The notes below the pieces were generated by a model that saw only the letters and a list, made by a program, of their open reading frames with translations, searched no databases and was not told the origin of the DNA. A stretch of 64,000 nucleotides of DNA from Gammaproteobacteria bacterium (lineage in GTDB: Bacteria > Pseudomonadota > Gammaproteobacteria > SZUA-152), in assembly GCA_021647705.1 (NCBI GenBank), contig JAKIUF010000005.1, positions 43,936-107,935 on the forward strand. Direction: 5' to 3'. Numbering within the stretch: position 1 is the stretch's first letter; each line of letters starts with the position of its first letter. The translations under genes and the position numbers were made by a program. Positions 3,531 through 45,785 of the stretch are shown here, piece by piece.

Positions 3531-3545
3531 CAGTTCAATGGAATA

Positions 3546-3736
3546 TCACTGCGGGAGAGTGTGGTTCTCTGATTATTATTTGTCAGGGTAAAAAACCACC
3601 GCCGAAGGCGCAACCGCCCGGAATCGCTCAGGCAACCGGACCGCAGACCGACAATCGTTGACTCTGGAGAGAGACTGAAGCTACAGGCGTCAGTCCGCCG
3701 AAGGGGCTAAAGCTCTCAGGCACCACGGACAGAGGG
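3546..3736 (+). promoter_or_regulatory. Tandem glycine riboswitch (two aptamers) in the gcvT leader
   Basis: Aptamer 1: GCGGGAGAG...CACCGCCGAAGGCGCAACC...CTCAGGCAACCGGACCGCAG. Aptamer 2: CTCTGGAGAGAG...GTCCGCCGAAGGGGCTAAAGCTCTCAGGCACCACGGACAGAGG. Both carry the conserved GGAGAG / CCGAAGG / CTCAGGCA glycine-aptamer blocks. They sit immediately 5' of gcvT. Confidence 0.8.
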
Positions 3737-3799
3737 GTGGCAAAACAGCACAATTGCTGTTTGAAAACCCGTGTCCATAAAAACCAGAGGTCTACACGT

Positions 3800-34929: not shown

Positions 34930-35230
34930 CGTAGGGTGGGCACGTTTTTTGTGCCCACGCGTGTACCAGCTCGGCCTGCATTAAACCAACTGTGATAAAA
35001 ATGTCTTGGCAGAAACAATTACCGGACGCTTTATATCAATAAACTCGCCATCAATTGCCACATTGTAAAATAGTCAAGACCAAAACAAGACACCCCTTAA
35101 AATGGTCGAGATTATACTGACTATGCTGACTGGGCCTGAATAAATGAAAATCCAACGCAAAGGCGCGAAAACGCAGAGGACGCAAAGAAAAGGGGGCGTA
35201 GGGTGGGCACGTTTTTTGTGCCCACGCGCA
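34930..35230. repeat. Pair of direct REP-like palindromic units CGTAGGGTGGGCACGTTTTTTGTGCCCACGCG (34930-34961 and 35197-35228)
   Basis: Identical 32-bp units, each a GTGGGCAC/GTGCCCAC hairpin with a GTAG head. They lie in the YyaL-rlmI intergenic space. Confidence 0.55.
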
Positions 35231-35354
35231 TACTGAATGAATCAGCTGAATCACAACAAACGTAACAGGATTAGATTGTAAGCTTGCCCACAGCTAGCGA
35301 TAATAGCACTTTCTCCCGCACGACAACTCGTGCAAAAAATAGGAATCACCCACC

Positions 35355-36554
35355 GTGAGCAAAACCCTCCCTCCCCTGCGTCTCAAAAAAAATGAAGAAC
35401 GTCGCCTCAAGGCAGGCCATTTATGGGTCTACAGCAACGAAATCGATATCGACAAAACGCCACTGAAAGATTTCTCCCCCGGCACAGCCGTCAGCATCGA
35501 AGATTCGCAGGGTCATGTGCTAGGCAATGCCTACGTCAATCCGCATTCACTGATCAGCGCACGGCTGATTAGTCGTGATACAAAATATGTACTGGACCAA
35601 TCACTGATAACCCACCGCCTGAACATTGCTCTCTCACTGCGCGAACAATGTTTCGCACAACCCTTTTATCGCCTGGTACACGGTGAAGGGGACAACCTGC
35701 CCGGACTGATAGTGGACCGCTTCGCGGACGTACTGGTGGTGCAAATCACCACTGCAGGCATGGAAATGCAAAAACAGGCCATCATCGCCGCGCTGGAAAA
35801 AACCCTCAAACCTGCGGCCATCGTATTGCGCAACGACAGCCCCTCCCGCAAAGCCGAAGAACTGGATAGCTACGTCGAAACCGCCAGCGGCAAGTTACCG
35901 GAATCAGTGCTACTGGAAGAAAACAACACCCGTTTTGAAATCGATGTACTCAGCGGTCAAAAAACCGGCTGGTTTTACGACCATCGCATGAACCGTGCGC
36001 GCATGCAGCATTACGTCAAAGACAAGCGGGTACTGGATGTCTTCAGCTACATCGGCGGCTGGGGGATTCAGGCGCTCACCGCCGGGGCCAACGAAGTGAT
36101 GTGTATTGATGCTTCAGCCAAAGCCGTTGATCGCATGCATCACAATGCCTGCCTGAACAACGTAGAAGATAAACTGGTGAGCGTAGAAGGCGACGCCTTC
36201 GAAGCACTAAAATCCCTGCGCCAGGAACGCGAACGTTTTGACGTAGTGATTATCGACCCACCCGCCTTCATCAAACGCAAAAAAGATTTCAAAGAAGGCC
36301 TCACCGCCTATCGACGCATTAATCAAATGGCCTTGCAGGTACTCAACAAAGGCGGCTATCTGATCAGCGCCTCCTGCTCGTTTCATCTCACACGCGCGCA
36401 ACTGCACGACACCATTTTAAAAGCCAGTCGTCATATTGATCGCAATGCGCAAATTATCGAGCAAGGTCACCAGGGGCCAGATCATCCGGTACACCCAGCC
36501 ATTGCGGAAACCGATTATTTAAAGGCATTTATCACCCGCATTTTGTCGAATTAA
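35355..36554 (+). CDS. rlmI: 23S rRNA m5C1962 methyltransferase (PUA plus class-I SAM MTase)
   Basis: MSKTLPPLRLKKNEERRLKAGHLWVYSNEID... matches the RlmI N-terminus. SAM-binding motif region present. GTG start. Confidence 0.85.
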   Translation: MSKTLPPLRLKKNEERRLKAGHLWVYSNEIDIDKTPLKDFSPGTAVSIEDSQGHVLGNAYVNPHSLISARLISRDTKYVLDQSLITHRLNIALSLREQCFAQPFYRLVHGEGDNLPGLIVDRFADVLVVQITTAGMEMQKQAIIAALEKTLKPAAIVLRNDSPSRKAEELDSYVETASGKLPESVLLEENNTRFEIDVLSGQKTGWFYDHRMNRARMQHYVKDKRVLDVFSYIGGWGIQALTAGANEVMCIDASAKAVDRMHHNACLNNVEDKLVSVEGDAFEALKSLRQERERFDVVIIDPPAFIKRKKDFKEGLTAYRRINQMALQVLNKGGYLISASCSFHLTRAQLHDTILKASRHIDRNAQIIEQGHQGPDHPVHPAIAETDYLKAFITRILSN

Positions 36555-36574
36555 TGAATTAAGTATTGCACCCT

Positions 36575-36960
36575 CTTGTGCATCACACTGTTGATCTGGA
36601 TATGATCCTTCCGATGCGTATGCCAAAAAACGCAATAAAGCAGAACGGTTCACCGGCATCTTCTTTGCCCATAGGAAGATGACAAGCTTATCGAAACTGA
36701 GTTAAGGCTCCTTCGGGAGCCTTTGTCATTCATAACGCTCTTAAAAACATAGCGCTATCCCCGTCAGCCAACAAGCCAAGTCGGGTAGGGTGGAACAAGC
36801 GTAGCGGTTCCACCAAACAGGATAAGGGACATATTCAAGGTTCGATTGCTATCGACGTCCACCTTGACTCACCGTTTGCTGGTGAGTTGTTGTTGAATAA
36901 GAGATTTTTTCTCCGACTTCAGGCAATCGGAGTTTTGTTGCAGAGTGTTGATTTTTTGTC
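36575..36960. repeat. Copy 1 of a ~300-390 bp structured repeat (UUCG-tetraloop hairpin GGCTCC-TTCG-GGAGCC, REP unit, two hairpins followed by T-runs)
   Basis: About 90% identical to 38320-38890, with a ~150-bp indel between the copies. Ends with CTCCGA-CTTCAGGCAA-TCGGAG-TTTTGTTG. Confidence 0.6.
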
Positions 36961-37029
36961 AGCGGTCGTAAGCTATAGAGGTGATTTGTTGTTCCGTAAT
37001 CGCCTGTTGGTGGAACCGCTGCGCTTGTT
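36783..37029. repeat. Inverted pair of REP-like units GTAGGGTGGAACAAGCGTAGCGGTTCCACC (36783-36815 forward, 36996-37028 reverse) flanking ~180 bp
   Basis: The two 30-bp units are reverse complements of each other with 1 mismatch. Each is itself a GGTGGAAC/GTTCCACC hairpin. A third forward copy lies at 38719-38751. Confidence 0.6.
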
Positions 37030-37524
37030 CCACCCTACGGGTTTACTCTGTGCTGAATAGAGAAAATCAAAAGGGATCAAGTATCATATTGACGATTTAT
37101 TTTAACCGCTAATTTAATGGAATTAATCTCATCCTTCATACGCAACTTCCACTTTGAATAGTTTAAGCATTTCTGAAGAAATAATTTTCTACCAACTAAC
37201 CGCTAATATGATACTTGACCTTCATTTTTTTATCACCCGCATTTTGTCGAACTAACGAATTAAGCAAAATCATCAAGTTAAAAATAGGTTGGCGGTGAGT
37301 TTGCGAACCCCAACGCTACCTCAGCATGCAGTTTAAGAGGCACTGGGAATTAGGTCGCATTTTCAATAAAATAAATTTTATGGGAATAGATAACATTCAT
37401 ATCTTTATCCTGTTTTTATAAAAAAGTGGCTTGCCCCTTGTGCCAAAAACAATCTATAAAACGGATGAATTAAGTATTGCGCTCTCTTATTTTGATAGAA
37501 AAATGGCTCATATGGTCAGCCGTT

Positions 37525-37926
37525 TTATATATTGAATAGCTGTATTGGGGTGTATTTTTTATAATGAGAAAAATCCTTATCCGTCGTGAATATTTCTGAT
37601 TTCAGTCGAAACGCAACCGCACAAATCAAAAAATCAACATGTGAACCTTGAACACCTTTTGACCGACAGGTATTCGAAAATGTTGCTGCCTGAACATAGT
37701 CACCGTCAATGATTTGCTCATTTTCAAAATAGCGTAATTTGCTATTTAATTTCTCAAACTTAGATTTGACGCTATAGCCCGACAAAACCTCCTGCCTGAT
37801 TGGACCAAGCATTACCACCCTTTGGTCTGAAATCAGGGTTTCAAGCTCCTTAACACAAGCCTCATATCCTTTTTTTTTGGATCTTAAAGCGTATGACCAT
37901 ATTGGCGTATCTACGATGACCTTCAA
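37525..37926 (-). CDS. vapC: PIN-domain toxin (VapC family)
   Basis: MKVIVDTPIW... with conserved acidic residues of the PIN fold. 133 aa. 4-bp overlap with the upstream antitoxin gene. Confidence 0.7.
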   Translation of the reverse strand: MKVIVDTPIWSYALRSKKKGYEACVKELETLISDQRVVMLGPIRQEVLSGYSVKSKFEKLNSKLRYFENEQIIDGDYVQAATFSNTCRSKGVQGSHVDFLICAVAFRLKSEIFTTDKDFSHYKKYTPIQLFNI

Positions 37927-38120
37927 TGCGCTCTGCCCTTTTTATAATCGTAATCAGCATCAGGATCCAGCTTCCCAAACAACTCTATAATTTCCAATTG
38001 CTTACGACGATTCACAAACTCTTTTAAAGCATAATTAACCGTATCTTTTTTAGTTTTTAACCCGCTGAGCAATAGAGCTTCTTCCAATAATTTGTCGTCA
38101 ATTGCTAAATTCGTTGCCAT
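37923..38120 (-). CDS. vapB: VapB-type antitoxin (small DNA-binding protein)
   Basis: 65-aa MATNLAIDDKLLEEALLLSGLKTKKDTVNYALKEFV... translationally coupled to the PIN gene. Confidence 0.5.
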   Translation of the reverse strand: MATNLAIDDKLLEEALLLSGLKTKKDTVNYALKEFVNRRKQLEIIELFGKLDPDADYDYKKGRAH

Positions 38121-38319
38121 TTTGCATCTCCTTTTTCTCACACAATAGGCGACACATAGCAGTGTGTCAACAACGAATCCTCACAGGGTACCGGTAAAAA
38201 ACCCAGGTACGGCTAACGCCATACTCAGTGCCCGCCCTGAAGGCGCATGCTTCCAATAATCTCCCGCTCAACAATGTTAATTTGAAGAACATCTGCGCCC
38301 GTGAGCAGCTTAAATCGGC

Positions 38320-38890
38320 GTTTCCTGAGCCACTTATACAACACACTGTTGATCTAGATATGGTCATTCCGATGCGTATACCAAAAAATGCAATAAAGCA
38401 GAATGGTTCATTGGCATCTTCTTTGCCCATAGGAAATTGACCATCCTCGGTTACCCAAATACTGCATCCTGGTGCTAAAAAAATGTACGGATAACCCCTC
38501 TCACGGGACATTAATCCGCTAGAAAAAACCGGTAACGGCATACGCCCCAGTCTTGCAATCAAGCAGAAATGTATTCAACAGTGAACAGTGCAGTCAGCCC
38601 GGCAAAGCGGTGACAAGCTTCTCGAAGCTGAGTTAAGGCTCCTTCGGGAGCCTTTGTCATTCATAACGCTCTTAAAAACATAGCGCTCCCCCCCCTCCGT
38701 CAGCCATCAAGACAAGTCGGGTAGGGTGGAACAAGCGTAGCGGTTCCACCAAACGGGATAAGAGACATATTCACGGTTCGATTGCTATCTACGTCCACCT
38801 TGACTCGCCGTTTGCTCGTGAGCTGTTGTTGAATAAGGGCTTTTTTCTCCGGCTTCAGGCAACCGGGGTTTTGTTCACTGCAACATAGAC
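38320..38890. repeat. Copy 2 of the ~300-390 bp structured repeat (carries an extra ~150-bp internal segment)
   Basis: Shares CACACTGTTGATCT...GCAATAAAGCAGAA... and ...CTGAGTTAAGGCTCCTTCGGGAGCCTTTGTCATTCATAACGCTCTTAAAAACATAGCGCT...GTCGGGTAGGGTGGAACAAGCGTAGCGGTTCCACC... with copy 1. Confidence 0.6.
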
Positions 38891-38945
38891 CATACACTGG
38901 CAGACAAAGAGATTGACAACTGATTAAGGCGGTAAACAAAAGAAA

Positions 38946-39057
38946 AATAGGGGTCAAGTTTATTGTATAAAATCAAAAAATATTTTCGTACTCAATTTTT
39001 GCTGGGAAGGGTATGGGTAGCTAATGTCATTATACAATAGGCTTGACCCCTTCACTC
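38946..39057. repeat. 110-bp TIR element copy 1 (MITE-like; ends AATAGGGGTCAAG...CTTGACCCC)
   Basis: Near-identical to 40661-40770 and 42629-42757. Terminal inverted repeats GGGGTCAAGTTTATTGTATA / TATACAATAGGCTTGACCCC. Confidence 0.6.
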
Positions 39058-39233
39058 TTACGAGACTAAATCACTTCAACTTTCGTTTACGGCCTGCTGC
39101 CTTGCGGCACGTCGTGCTTAACATTTAGGATTACTCCCGCCTGCCCGACGCTTGCTACCCGGTGGCTGACCTGCCTTGCCGGGGCGGGTTTCTCACCCGC
39201 TGGAATAATCGACCTGGCTCGGCCGCACACCCC

Positions 39234-39725
39234 TTAACTTTTTTTGTTGTCTGAAAAATTCTCATTTCTAATAATTTGTTTTAACTTCAGATAATACCCA
39301 TTTGAGGTCTCTACCCAAACGCCGTCCCATTCACCGCCTTTGTTTGTCCATCGACTAGCAAGGAAAAATTCAACAGAATGACCGACATCTACACCCTTGT
39401 TTTTTAAGTCTGCACGCAAACTTAAAAATGCATCTTGTGATTTTATCGTCATGATTTTTTCAGGTTTATTAGTAAACTCGCTTTTTGTATAAATTATTCG
39501 CCAAATAAATATGCTACTGACTCCCCTGTCAGCCTCTTCACGATACAACAACTTAGCATCTGCTGGAAATTCCAGGCCGCTTATTTTTTCTATATGCTCA
39601 ACCGGTTCAGACAATACCTGATCCGGTACTTCTAATAGGCGCGAAACAGAAAAAACACCCAGTACAAAGAGAAAACTCAGTACTATCACGAATAGTAGGA
39701 TCAGCTTTTTCACATTACCTACCAC
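39234..39725 (-). CDS. Hypothetical membrane-anchored protein (163 aa) in the integron cassette region
   Basis: N-terminal TM helix LILLFVIVLSFLFVLGVF. 11-bp overlap with the upstream ORF 39715-40398. Confidence 0.5.
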   Translation of the reverse strand: MVGNVKKLILLFVIVLSFLFVLGVFSVSRLLEVPDQVLSEPVEHIEKISGLEFPADAKLLYREEADRGVSSIFIWRIIYTKSEFTNKPEKIMTIKSQDAFLSLRADLKNKGVDVGHSVEFFLASRWTNKGGEWDGVWVETSNGYYLKLKQIIRNENFSDNKKS

Positions 39726-40398: not shown

Positions 40399-40660
40399 CC
40401 CTTAATTTTTTCAATCTAAATTTCCTCCACCCTATAATGACAAAATCATACTGTCAAACGAACGAAAGGCTTGTACTGTGCTTTGTTTTAACACTGATGA
40501 AAGAAGGAGAGACCTTTCGATTTCTGCTCAGCTCAATCAGTGCCACTCTGCAAATTGTCCGCGTTAATCACTTTTGTTAGCCTTTTATTGGCACCCACAA
40601 CAATTTCGCTCCAATATGCTTATGGATTAAAACAGATAGTAATCTATGTTTATAAAATAG

Positions 40661-40770
40661 AATAGGGGTCAAGTTTATTGTATAATATCAAAAAATATTT
40701 TCGTACTCAATTTTTGTTGGGAAGGGTATGGGTAGCTAATGTCATTATACAATAGGCTTGACCCTTTTAC
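40661..40770. repeat. 110-bp TIR element copy 2
   Basis: 97% identical to copies 1 and 3. Abuts the truncated 3' end of the IS91 N-terminal fragment. Confidence 0.6.
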
Positions 40771-41046
40771 TTTCAGGTCATTGAGCGCCAAGGGTATTGT
40801 GAAGATGGCGTGGTGATGTGGGCAGTCCAGCAATACCCTTTGGGTGTTAATCAGCCATTCTTCGGTTGGCATGCCTCGACATTGGGGGCAGGCGCAGTGT
40901 TTACAGGAGTTGTACCAGATGCCGTTGAGGTGGTTGTTTTCACAGTATTGCGCATGTCCGCCCAGGGCGGCGGTACGACAGGTGGAGAGTTTGTCCAGGG
41001 CTTTCAGATGATGTAGCGGTAAGCTGACTTTTTGTCCGCTTGTCAT
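40675..41046 (-). mobile_element. IS91-family transposase, N-terminal zinc-binding fragment (pseudogene; reading frame runs into the 110-bp element)
   Basis: LGGHAQYCENNHLNGIWYNSCKHCACPQCRG...HHHAIFTIP matches the N-terminal Zn-binding and first conserved block of IS91/Y2 transposases. No HUH/Tyr catalytic region follows. Confidence 0.6.
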
Positions 41047-42297: not shown

Positions 42298-42490
42298 TCA
42301 TAGATTCCTAATTGGTCATAACTTATTAGTATTAGGCATATTTGCCCGGTTATCCGGCAGTATTACACGAAGAATCAGGCACATTTGCCTGCTAATCACT
42401 GAAAACCGGTCAACTTGCCCTGATATGTTGATATTGGGGTGGTATTTAGGCATATTTACCCGCTATTTTTCTCAAACTCTATGCTTCGGA
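42298..42490. other. Second, degenerate attI-like region (duplicate of 44659-44739 with a ~100-bp insertion)
   Basis: AACTTATTAGTATTAGGCATATTTGCCCG at 42322 and GGTATTTAGGCATATTTACCCGCTATTTTTCTCAAACTCTATGCTTCGGAAATCACC at 42440 match the sequence immediately upstream of intI at 44676-44739. Confidence 0.55.
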
Positions 42491-42491
42491 A

Positions 42492-42628
42492 ATCACCATG
42501 TCAACTCAGAATTCTGGAAAAGATTTATTGACAGAAATGCGCGATTTAATGCGACGGTTGCATTATTCCATCCATACTGAACGCGCTTATTGCGACTGGG
42601 TTGCGCGCTTTATTCGTTTTCATCAGAG
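42492..42628 (+). pseudogene. Integron integrase 5' fragment (first ~43 codons of an intI paralogue), truncated by the 110-bp element
   Basis: [43 protein letters not shown] is 95% identical to the N-terminus of the intact intI at 44740. The frame then runs into the repeat. Confidence 0.7.
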
Positions 42629-42757
42629 AATAGGGGTCAAGTTTATTGTACAATATCAAAAAATATTTTCGTACTCAATTTTTGTTGGGAAGGGTATGGG
42701 TAGCTAATGTCATTATACAATAGGCTTGCCCCCTTCACTCAGCCCCCTTCACTCAAG
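42629..42757. repeat. 110-bp TIR element copy 3 (with a 12-bp tandem duplication CCCCCTTCACTC at its right end)
   Basis: Near-identical to copies 1 and 2. Lies between the intI fragment and the IS91 C-terminal fragment. Confidence 0.6.
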
Positions 42758-43207
42758 CACTATCCGGAAAAATGGGTCGTTGATTGTAAATCGGTCGGTT
42801 CCGGTGAACAGGCGCTGATTTATCTGGGGCGTTATCTCTACCGGGGTGTTATTCGGGAGAAGGATATTGTGAGCTGTGAAAATCGGAAGGTGACTTTTCG
42901 TTACCAAAACAGCAAGACAAAGCAGTGGGATTTCAAAACGGTTTCGGGCGAACAATTCTTGTGGCTGATTCTCCAACACGTACTCCCGAGACGCTTTCGA
43001 CGCACACGCAATTTTGGTTTCCTGCATCCCAACAGTAAACGGTTGATTCAGGTGATTCAGCTTTTGTTTGGGCTCGATATAAACCGGACTCTGGCATGGA
43101 TGAAAGAAAGACCCAAAATGATTTGTCGGTGTTGTGGTGGAAAGATGACGATCATCAAAACCCGGCTTTCTCCCATCCGTCTGCTGGCGGCTTTGGTTCC
43201 AACTTGA
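42758..43207 (+). mobile_element. IS91-family transposase, C-terminal fragment (pseudogene)
   Basis: EKWVVDCKSVGSGEQALIYLGRYLYRGVIREKDIV...CRCCGGKMTIIKT matches the C-terminal conserved block and terminal Cys cluster of IS91-family transposases. The N-terminal two-thirds are missing. Confidence 0.6.
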
Positions 43208-44658: not shown

Positions 44659-44739
44659 ATTTTTTATCCTCGCCTAACTTATTAGTATTAGGCATATTTA
44701 CCCGCTATTTTTCTCAAACTCTATGCTTCGGAAATCACC
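44659..44739. other. attI recombination site of the integron (core GTTAGGC on the minus strand at 44672-44678)
   Basis: Lies between intI and the first cassette. Contains the TATTAGGCATATTTACCCG repeat, also present twice in the degenerate copy at 42298-42490. Confidence 0.55.
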
Positions 44740-45720
44740 ATGTCAACTCAGAATTCTGGAAAAGATTTATTGACAGAAATGCGCGATTTGATGCGGCGTT
44801 TGCATTATTCCATCCATACTGAACGCGCTTATTGCGACTGGGCTGCGCGTTTTGTTCGTTTTCATCAGATGAAGGCGCGGGATGCACTTTTTGTGGATGC
44901 AGAAAAAAATGTGGAGGATTTTTTGACGCATTTGGCGGTACAGGAGGCTGTAGCGGCTTCGACGCAGAACCAGGCTTTCAATGCGTTGGTCTTCCTGTAT
45001 AAGCGGGTACTGCTACAACCTCTGGAAAATGTGTCGGCAACCCGTTCGCGTAGAGAACCACGAATTCCGGTGGTGTTGACGCGAGAGGAGGTGAAGCAGG
45101 TATTGACTTTGCTGGAAGGAACAGCGGAGTTGGTGGTAAAGCTGTTGTACGGTTGTGGTTTACGGATTACCGAGGCGGTGCGTTTGCGGGTGCAGGATAT
45201 CGATTATGGGTACAAGCAGGTCACTGTGCGTAATGGTAAGGGTAATAAGGATCGAGTGACACCGTTCCCCGCCATTCTGGAGTCTCTGCTAAAGAATCAT
45301 CTGGAGCGGGTGATGGCCGTTCATGAGCGGGATCTTGAGGATGGGTTTGGCGCGGTTTATTTGCCTTATGCTCTGGCTCGCAAGTATCCAAATGCGGAGA
45401 AGGAGTGGAATTGGCAGTATGTTTTTCCCAGCAGGAAGTTGTCGGAAGACCCTCGGAGTGGGATGACGCGTCGGCATCATGTGGATCAGTCGGTGGTGAA
45501 TAAGGCCATTCGGCAGGCGGTGCGCACAGCGGAAATCACGAAAAAAGTGAGTGCGCATACCTTTCGTCACAGCTTTGCGACCCATTTGCTGCAACGGGGC
45601 ACAGATATTCGCACTATTCAATCGCTGTTGGGGCATCGGGATGTGCAGACAACCATGATTTATACTCATGTATTAAAGCAGGGTGGAGAGGGTGTGGTCA
45701 GTCCTTTGGAGGATTTGTAA
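44740..45720 (+). CDS. intI: Integron integrase (tyrosine recombinase, IntI family)
   Basis: N-terminal [22 protein letters not shown]. IntI-specific additional domain [21 protein letters not shown]...[11 protein letters not shown]. Catalytic box [12 protein letters not shown]...[16 protein letters not shown]. Divergent from a minus-strand cassette array. Confidence 0.9.
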
Positions 45721-45785
45721 CAAACAAAACGAATACTCTGTAGGCCACAATTATATTGCTCTCTGACGGGGCTACCGATTAACCG

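Follow-up and report, generated by a model that had tools for sequence, protein, structure and literature searches.

A 701-bp insertion that regenerates the 3′ end of an rlmI-like gene and carries a deleted copy of downstream DNA

When the terminal bases of a gene recur downstream of it, has a mobile element integrated at the gene end, or has the chromosome rearranged itself? This question is raised by an rlmI-like gene in a 64,000-nt stretch of DNA (hereafter the window; assembly GCA_021647705.1, contig JAKIUF010000005.1, positions 43,936 to 107,935) from an uncultured vent gammaproteobacterium. A first-pass annotation of the window had read the recurring gene end as the signature of serial, site-specific insertions at one attachment site. 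Comparison with approximately 100 fetched rlmI loci (referred to by L numbers) indicates that this interpretation is supported in part only: there is one real insertion, it is not serial, and site-specificity is unlikely. The reading we favour, to which we assign a probability of roughly 0.55, is that the inserted block is a degenerate second copy of adjacent DNA, which arose either when two diverged versions of the locus underwent unequal or illegitimate recombination or when a tandem duplication later suffered deletions, after which flanking homology carried the copy in.

The rlmI-like gene (35355–36554, + strand) encodes a PUA domain and an S-adenosylmethionine (SAM)-dependent rRNA methyltransferase domain (Pfam PUA_3 and Methyltrans_SAM), and is matched by the NCBIfam RlmI-type models with scores under their equivalog cut-offs. 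Its 3′ end is the duplicated sequence. Copy 1 (left part of repeat S1; 36528–36563, +; TTTATCACCCGCATTTTGTCGAATTAATGAATTAAG) is the functional rlmI terminus, comprising the last 27 nt of the gene and 9 nt beyond the stop codon, and ends in the octamer GAATTAAG. Copy 2 (S2; 37229–37264, +; ending in GAACTAACGAATTAAG) is a displaced terminus at an offset of 701 bases that runs on into ancestral downstream DNA. Both copies are identical at 34 of 36 positions (blastn-short E = 1.3e-9 within the window), a better match than the 29/33 originally claimed, and differ only by a synonymous AAT-to-AAC change in the last codon and by one base after the TAA stop that they share. Copy 3 (S3; 37465–37488, +; ATGAATTAAGTATTGCGCTCTCTT) lies in the 3′ flank of a vapC gene, inside a weak palindrome with 19-nt arms, and corresponds to the junction between GAATTAAG and TATTGCACCCTCTT at 36554–36577 (+; referred to as the O-X junction), with 22 of 24 positions matching in the pattern ATGAATTAAGTATTGC.C.CTCTT (E = 4.9e-4 within the window). 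This third copy had been recognised correctly but placed about 19 nt too far to the left, as GATGAATTAAGTATTGCGCTC is found at 37464–37484 and not at 37445–37465. Copy 1 thus consists of two halves that meet at GAATTAAG, the left one corresponding to copy 2 and the right one to copy 3. Taken alone, the octamer is not unusually frequent (four occurrences in the window versus 2.2 expected), and it is the longer repeats, rather than GAATTAAG itself, that carry the signal. The rlmI-end repeats are therewith confirmed as real.

Because five close relatives (L086, L089, L092, L099 and L100, with approximately 91–97% nucleotide identity in the flanks) show an empty site, the 701-bp block at 36564–37264 (+; equivalently 36528–37228) is a true insertion. 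In these relatives the rlmI stop codon is immediately followed by the sequence found after copy 2 in the window, and those with long enough contigs continue via copy 3 and vapBC up to the window-equivalent of 38256. The earlier proposal of an insertion beside the gene end that regenerates the rlmI terminus is thus borne out. The intergenic stretch between copies 2 and 3 (designated Y-F-Z; 37265–37464, +) directly follows rlmI in L086, L089, L092 and L100, and the first part of this approximately 200-bp spacer is present in L002 as well. Copies 2 and 3 and the spacer between them are ancestral DNA and, since the spacer and copy 3 occur in relatives with an empty site, the interval of 190–200 bp does not represent a second integration. 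The word "serial" therefore has to be dropped.

Because the window stems from a metagenome-assembled genome (MAG), and because several strains with differing alleles downstream of rlmI co-occur in related samples, the structure might have been created by concatenating two strain haplotypes of this region during assembly. However, both junctions are reproduced by three independent assemblies. The Logan contigs L082 and L083 (SRR32233992/3) are 100% identical to window positions 35199–36726, the Logan contig L094 (SRR32233990) is 100% identical to positions 37015–38657, and a single 1472-bp metagenome contig (L096; VAPF01072657.1) runs in one piece across 36198–37670 at 99.3% identity, holding the rlmI end, the entire 701 bp, copy 2, the spacer and copy 3. 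Given this agreement, an assembly artefact was rejected and seems barely credible. L096 carries nine substitutions clustered within 50 bp of rlmI (36380–36428) and is otherwise near-identical to the window; the cluster looks like a micro-recombination patch or strain variation.

What, then, does the block contain? Its left 412 bp consist of four collinear blocks that mirror, on the same strand and in the same order, the 1647 bp at 37229–38875. These are the rlmI tail (36528–36563 versus 37229–37264, 94% identity), the O-X junction (GAATTAAG-TATTGC; 36554–36577 versus 37465–37488, 92%), a fragment of a pseudogene termed X (36569–36683, +, versus 38327–38441, 86%), and a segment with a UUCG-type hairpin (GGCTCC-TTCG-GGAGCC) and a repetitive extragenic palindromic (REP) sequence (36680–36939, +, versus 38611–38875, +, 91%). 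Compared with the right-hand arrangement, the left copy misses three segments, namely the spacer of about 0.2 kb, a segment of about 0.84 kb that comprises vapBC, a promoter/terminator region and the 5′ end of the pseudogene, and a segment of about 0.17 kb. The vapBC toxin-antitoxin pair (37525–38141, –; vapC 37525–37926, vapB 37923–38141) is common to L086, L089 and L092 and absent from the left copy. At all four novel junctions there are overlaps of 4–10 nt in AT-rich DNA: GAATTAAG (with some flanking bases), CTCTT/CACTT, TGAC and, at the join to copy 2, CATTT/TTATC.

The pseudogene allowed the two arrangements to be polarised. A protein search with its reading frame detected a single homolog, P0016 (JGI 3300028417), a protein of 101 amino acids with a hydrophobic C-terminus that is encoded on L097, and the underlying DNA (L097 1362–1501) matches the window at 38276–38414 with 80% identity. 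From this comparison, the right copy including its 5′ part spans 38276–38441 (+; 80% over 140 nt to L097), and the homology starts exactly at G|TTAATTTGAAG in both loci. Since the first ~55 nt of X are missing from the left copy, and one and the same 1-nt frameshift is present in both copies of the window, the left copy is derived from an arrangement like the right copy by deletion, and not the reverse. Coding potential of the repeated block was rejected, as Pfam returned nothing and the P0016 homology exposes a frameshifted pseudogene. A structured RNA was likewise rejected, with an Rfam scan of 36400–39300 yielding only a group II intron fragment.

The remaining 289 bp of the block (36940–37228, +; referred to as U) are AT-rich, and nothing corresponding to them occurs elsewhere in the window or among the fetched loci. 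U holds an inverted copy (37007–37038, –) of the REP-like element that lies in the left hairpin block (36785–36816, +; GTAGGGTGGAAC...GTTCCACC), with 97% complementarity and a distance of 190 nt between them, as well as two perfect copies of TAACCGCTAAT and a 21-nt inverted repeat (37077–37097 and 37198–37218). A query with the whole block (36520–37300, including U) gave no plasmid or phage matches; U alone was not queried against metagenome or viral contigs. A metagenome search with the hairpin block retrieved only L095 and L096, contigs of the same strain and locus (99% identity to the window). The plasmid, phage and viral searches otherwise returned nothing relevant, and a viral match to L098, an AT-rich giant-virus contig, was set aside as a chance match. 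Within the 701 bp there is no open reading frame (ORF) with a family match, recombinase domains included, no attC-like fold upon folding, and no terminal inverted repeat, the block ends TATTGCACC... and ...CTTCATTTTT sharing none.

A further clue came from the flanks. Divergence between the window and L086 amounts to 3.6% in 35355–36050, rises to 8.2% in 36051–36527, is 9.3% in 37229–37540 and falls to 5.5% in 37541–38256. The block is thus enclosed by a window-specific divergent tract (36051–37540; divergence of 8.2–9.3% versus 3.6–5.5% in the flanks; Fisher p = 1.6e-4) that covers the 3′ ~500 nt of rlmI and about 300 bp to the right of the insertion, while the control comparison between L092 and L086 is flat. 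Within rlmI the same mosaic is apparent, as the window is 98.6% identical to L092 over nt 1–350 but only ~92% over nt 701–1200, where it is roughly equidistant from all relatives. This pattern suggests that a tract of ~1.5 kb, including the insertion, was probably imported by homologous recombination from an unsampled and more divergent relative, and such an import would also explain the 6–14% divergence between the repeat copies. The idea that the rlmI mosaic anchored an illegitimate join at copy 2 from one side only is weakened, since the divergent tract continues for ~300 bp to the right of the block. A shared C in TTTATCACC had been considered as a sign of intragenomic origin and was dropped, since L099 and L100 carry this C as well.

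On the recombination reading that we favour, the ancestral order would have been the rlmI tail (B-O), the 200-bp spacer, O-X′, vapBC, pseudogene X, the hairpin and the REP. A tandem second copy would then have been placed by unequal or illegitimate recombination, or by duplication and subsequent deletions. In that second copy the spacer would have been lost by deletion between short direct repeats (8–13 nt) containing GAATTAAG, yielding the copy 1 junction; vapBC and the 5′ end of X (~0.84 kb) would have been lost at the CTCTT/CACTT junction, and a further 0.17 kb at the TGAC junction. The end of rlmI would appear duplicated only since the join on the right lies 36 bp into the gene, at the CATTT/TTATC microhomology. 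Finally, the whole arrangement was probably acquired through the ~1.5-kb import. Because the spacer deletion and the join together account for the copies, GAATTAAG would act as a slippage or recombination repeat rather than as an att core. In several relatives (L086, L089 and L100) a perfect 13-nt repeat, GATGAATTAAGTA, is present at both the copy-2 and the copy-3 positions, and therefore offers a ready substrate for such a spacer deletion. The data show that there is an indel, that the blocks are collinear, that copies 2 and 3 and the spacer are ancestral, that the left copy is the derived one and that the block sits in a divergent tract; what type of recombination took place, and in which order its steps followed, is what we infer from this.

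Several points weigh against this scenario, the main ones being the unexplained U and the parental alleles, which were not observed. As U has no counterpart after the right-hand copy or elsewhere in the sequences searched, a plain tandem duplication would need either a later loss on the right side or an unsampled donor allele. The 6–14% difference between copies implies an old event or two diverged parental alleles, and neither parent was encountered. The junction microhomologies are short (4–10 nt) and lie in AT-rich DNA. Moreover, a 36-bp imperfect repeat that regenerates a gene 3′ end, combined with clean empty sites, is also the product of site-specific integration, and the two perfect 11-mers and the inverted repeat of U could be read as arm-type sites.

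These last points lead to an alternative in which a small non-autonomous element (similar to a cis-mobilizable element (CIME), or the remnant of a decayed island) whose attP carried the last ~36 bp of rlmI was integrated by a tyrosine recombinase encoded elsewhere, with copy 1 as attL and copy 2 as attR. The 36-bp imperfect direct repeats flanking the block, the intact rlmI gene and the precise empty sites in close relatives all agree with this, as do the TAACCGCTAAT copies and inverted repeat adjoining copy 2 and the allele distribution at the repeats: copy 2 carries the AACTAAC allele that is also found in L092, L087 and L090, and copy 1 carries AATTAAT, as if one side had come with the element. 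However, the block has no ORF with a recombinase domain, and the only recombinase gene among the ORFs scanned (32.7–62 kb of the window) is the integron integrase, itself a tyrosine recombinase. The left half of the block is collinear with the adjacent chromosome 0.7–2.3 kb downstream, including the supposed core-arm junction O-X, which moreover occurs 200 bp downstream of rlmI in relatives without the block. None of the 90 other rlmI loci has a second copy of the gene end within its available flank, and a literature search combining rlmI, "integration site" and "genomic island" found no papers. Metagenome matches were restricted to the same strain and locus, no match came from plasmids, phages or viral contigs, and the unusual divergence of both flanks is not something that integration would cause. 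Weighing both sides, we consider site-specific integration unlikely. The possibility, raised in the first-pass annotation, that the repeats belong to a larger repeat family is partly realised in that the block is collinear with downstream DNA, and the cognate att site it had sought near 45720–45785 came down to a gapped partial resemblance not above chance matches.

An even more doubtful version holds that the block is a miniature non-autonomous integrative element with the last ~36 bp of rlmI as attB, GAATTAAG in the crossover region and an unlinked recombinase acting in trans, the downstream O-X′-vapBC being the left end of an older member of the same family. If true, the rlmI terminus would be a previously unrecognised island hotspot in vent Gammaproteobacteria, and would add a new attachment site at a gene end together with an integrative element of very small size.

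The same product could arise without a dedicated recombinase from a Campbell-type (RecA-dependent) single crossover, in which a small circular DNA entered rlmI via at least 36 bp of shared sequence; the circle could have looped out of a tandem duplication in another cell and then have been taken up. Recombination is abundant at the locus, and an indel of 267 bp upstream of rlmI (34930–35228), which lies between perfect 32-bp direct REP-like repeats (CGTAGGGTGGGCACGTTTTTTGTGCCCACGCG) and is present in L092 and absent from L086, L089 and L002, would fit the same process. On the other hand, a stretch of 23–36 bp is at the lower limit for a RecA-dependent crossover, and the origin of the circle would still require the duplication of the explanation that we favour, from which this route differs only in the intermediate. 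We rate it as about as unlikely as site-specific integration.

The claim of a single attachment site can also be held against the relatives, in which downstream content and breakpoints differ even between close ones. The sequence diverges after the window-equivalent of 37419 in L002, at ~37314 in L087, L090 and L091, at 38256 in L086, L089 and L092, and almost immediately after rlmI in L001 and L084, where the mnh operon comes next. None of these variable-region boundaries coincides with GAATTAAG, so the notion of one attachment site is not supported. In L087 (1747–1774), L090 and L091 only a 28-nt internal remnant of vapC (window-equivalent 37607–37634) is left; downstream of rlmI it is fused to the REP-like element, a DsbA gene comes next, and the arrangement represents an independent deletion at the same locus. 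Within the spacer between rlmI and vapC, a REP-like palindromic insert of ~70 nt (GGTTGGCGGTGAG...CCCCAACGC; 37283–37350) is found in the window, L086, L087 and L092, and is absent from L002.

The surroundings of the block offer another candidate enzyme. A chromosomal integron adjoining type II secretion genes is headed by intI (44673–45720; TIGR02249, 447 bits versus a cut-off of 265) with the attI junction TAATAAG|TTAGGC, and IntI activity might in principle have left the block as a gene cassette or cassette remnant at a secondary site. This bona fide integrase is encoded only 7.5 kb away, it is accompanied by attI, by cassettes and by genuine attC hairpins (fold z-scores of –4.6 and –4.1), and the cassette array has its distal end on the side of rlmI. 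However, no attC hairpin is present in the block, neither of its ends falls at G|TT, a target duplication of 36 bp is not what IntI recombination leaves behind, the loss of vapBC from the left copy lacks cassette-excision endpoints, and upstream of vapB there is a terminator with a promoter instead of an attC site. The anatomy of the block largely refutes this explanation, which we regard as highly improbable. Candidate attC sites near the block were rejected as well: 38205–38335 folds with a z-score of –0.03 into no attC-like hairpin and corresponds to the terminator and vapB promoter region, and the palindrome at the vapC 3′ side is weak and non-canonical. In that promoter region (38142–38224, –), a vapB promoter-like site (TTGACA-17-TATTGT) overlaps the palindrome GACACACTGCTATGTGTC and is preceded by a terminator-like hairpin, so that, judging from these motifs, the vapBC unit appears to have its own predicted expression signals, unlike a typical promoterless cassette.

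All sizeable repeats of the 64-kb window cluster at 34.9–44.9 kb and, together with the upstream indel between 32-bp repeats, this clustering marks the locus as prone to rearrangement. To the right of the block, vapBC and the right repeat copy are followed by a truncated group II intron, 124-nt palindromic repeats, the halves of an IS91-family transposase and a truncated attI-intI duplicate. The latter (42446–42627) comprises attI and the first ~140 nt of intI at 97% identity, and the attI junction TAATAAG|TT occurs twice, the second time at 42319–42348. Beyond vapBC the region is an integron array with debris of insertion sequences (IS), elements resembling miniature inverted-repeat transposable elements (MITEs) and introns, and these are not insertions at rlmI, so the idea that the whole rlmI-to-intI region accreted at the gene end has to be abandoned.

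Some features of this region deserve mention in their own right. The 124-nt element is present three times (38933–39056, 40648–40771 and 42616–42739) with 90–96% identity and terminal inverted repeats of ~22 nt (GGGGTCAAGTTTATTGTATAAT...), which makes it MITE-like. Two of its copies abut the separated N- and C-terminal halves of the IS91-family transposase (40675–41046, –, and 42707–43207, +), in opposite orientations, and one copy truncates the intI duplicate. The group II intron remnant is a truncated D1-D4 fragment at a cassette end (39081–39202, –; RF02003, 54 bits), and L006 shares 59 nt (93%) with the window at 39178–39236. Far from the block, at 3542–3742 (+), lies a tandem glycine riboswitch with two RF00504 aptamers (59.8 and 48.7 bits).

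How does the block compare with known systems? With REP sequences and REP doublets forming hairpins (REPINs), it shares two REP-like sequences of 32 nt in inverted orientation, each opening with GTAG ahead of a palindrome, and another REP pair flanks the upstream 267-bp indel. It differs in their 190-nt spacing and internal rather than terminal position, and no gene for a REP-associated tyrosine transposase (RAYT) was found in the window. The REPs mark a recombination-prone context and do not explain the repeat of the rlmI end. A transposable element or MITE should have terminal inverted repeats, which the block lacks, and its flanking repeat is 36 bp long. To sedentary chromosomal integrons the block is linked by its distal position in an array that begins with a genuine IntI and attI, with toxin-antitoxin genes and small orphan ORFs nearby; it is set apart by the lack of attC, by boundaries that are not at GTTRRRY cores and by a 36-bp target duplication that is not an IntI product, while the candidates near the block fold with z-scores of only –0.03 and –2.2 around non-canonical cores. 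The block is neither an integron cassette nor a MITE or IS.

Integrative mobilizable elements are known to target the 3′ ends of RNA-modification genes, Salmonella genomic island 1 (SGI1) residing in trmE with 18-bp imperfect direct repeats and mobilizable genomic islands (MGIs) in yicC. As with these elements, an imperfect repeat of the last bases of a gene flanks the insertion, the gene remains intact and relatives have empty sites, so that flanking direct repeats and an empty attB are indeed in place. In contrast to them, the block has no integrase (which a CIME does not require), excisionase, oriT or foreign cargo and no unique arms, its content being a deleted paralogue of the adjacent chromosome; the rlmI site is not used recurrently in other genomes; and the supposed core is also found in ancestral DNA 200 bp downstream. 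The locus thus serves as a warning: with its gene 3′ end regenerated and clean empty sites in its relatives it mimics an att duplication, although what it carries is neighbouring DNA in a duplicated and collapsed form, and callers of islands or att sites that use direct repeats alone would mis-annotate it.

A further parallel is tandem or segmental duplication by unequal or illegitimate recombination with subsequent decay by deletion, which includes homology-facilitated illegitimate recombination upon uptake of diverged DNA. Here the likeness extends to the four collinear, same-strand paralogous blocks (86–94%), the deletions between short direct repeats and the mosaic, recombination-prone setting; the junctions also show microhomology, if only as overlaps of 4–10 nt in AT-rich DNA. 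The differences are that U (289 bp) has no second copy, so that not every part of the block has a counterpart, that a divergence of 6–14% is high for a recent intragenomic duplication, and that the parental alleles were not observed. Overall, the block fits ordinary segmental duplication and deletion at a recombination hotspot. The locus would document how duplication, short-repeat deletion and homologous import reshape a hypervariable region that adjoins the chromosomal integron of this uncultured vent bacterium.

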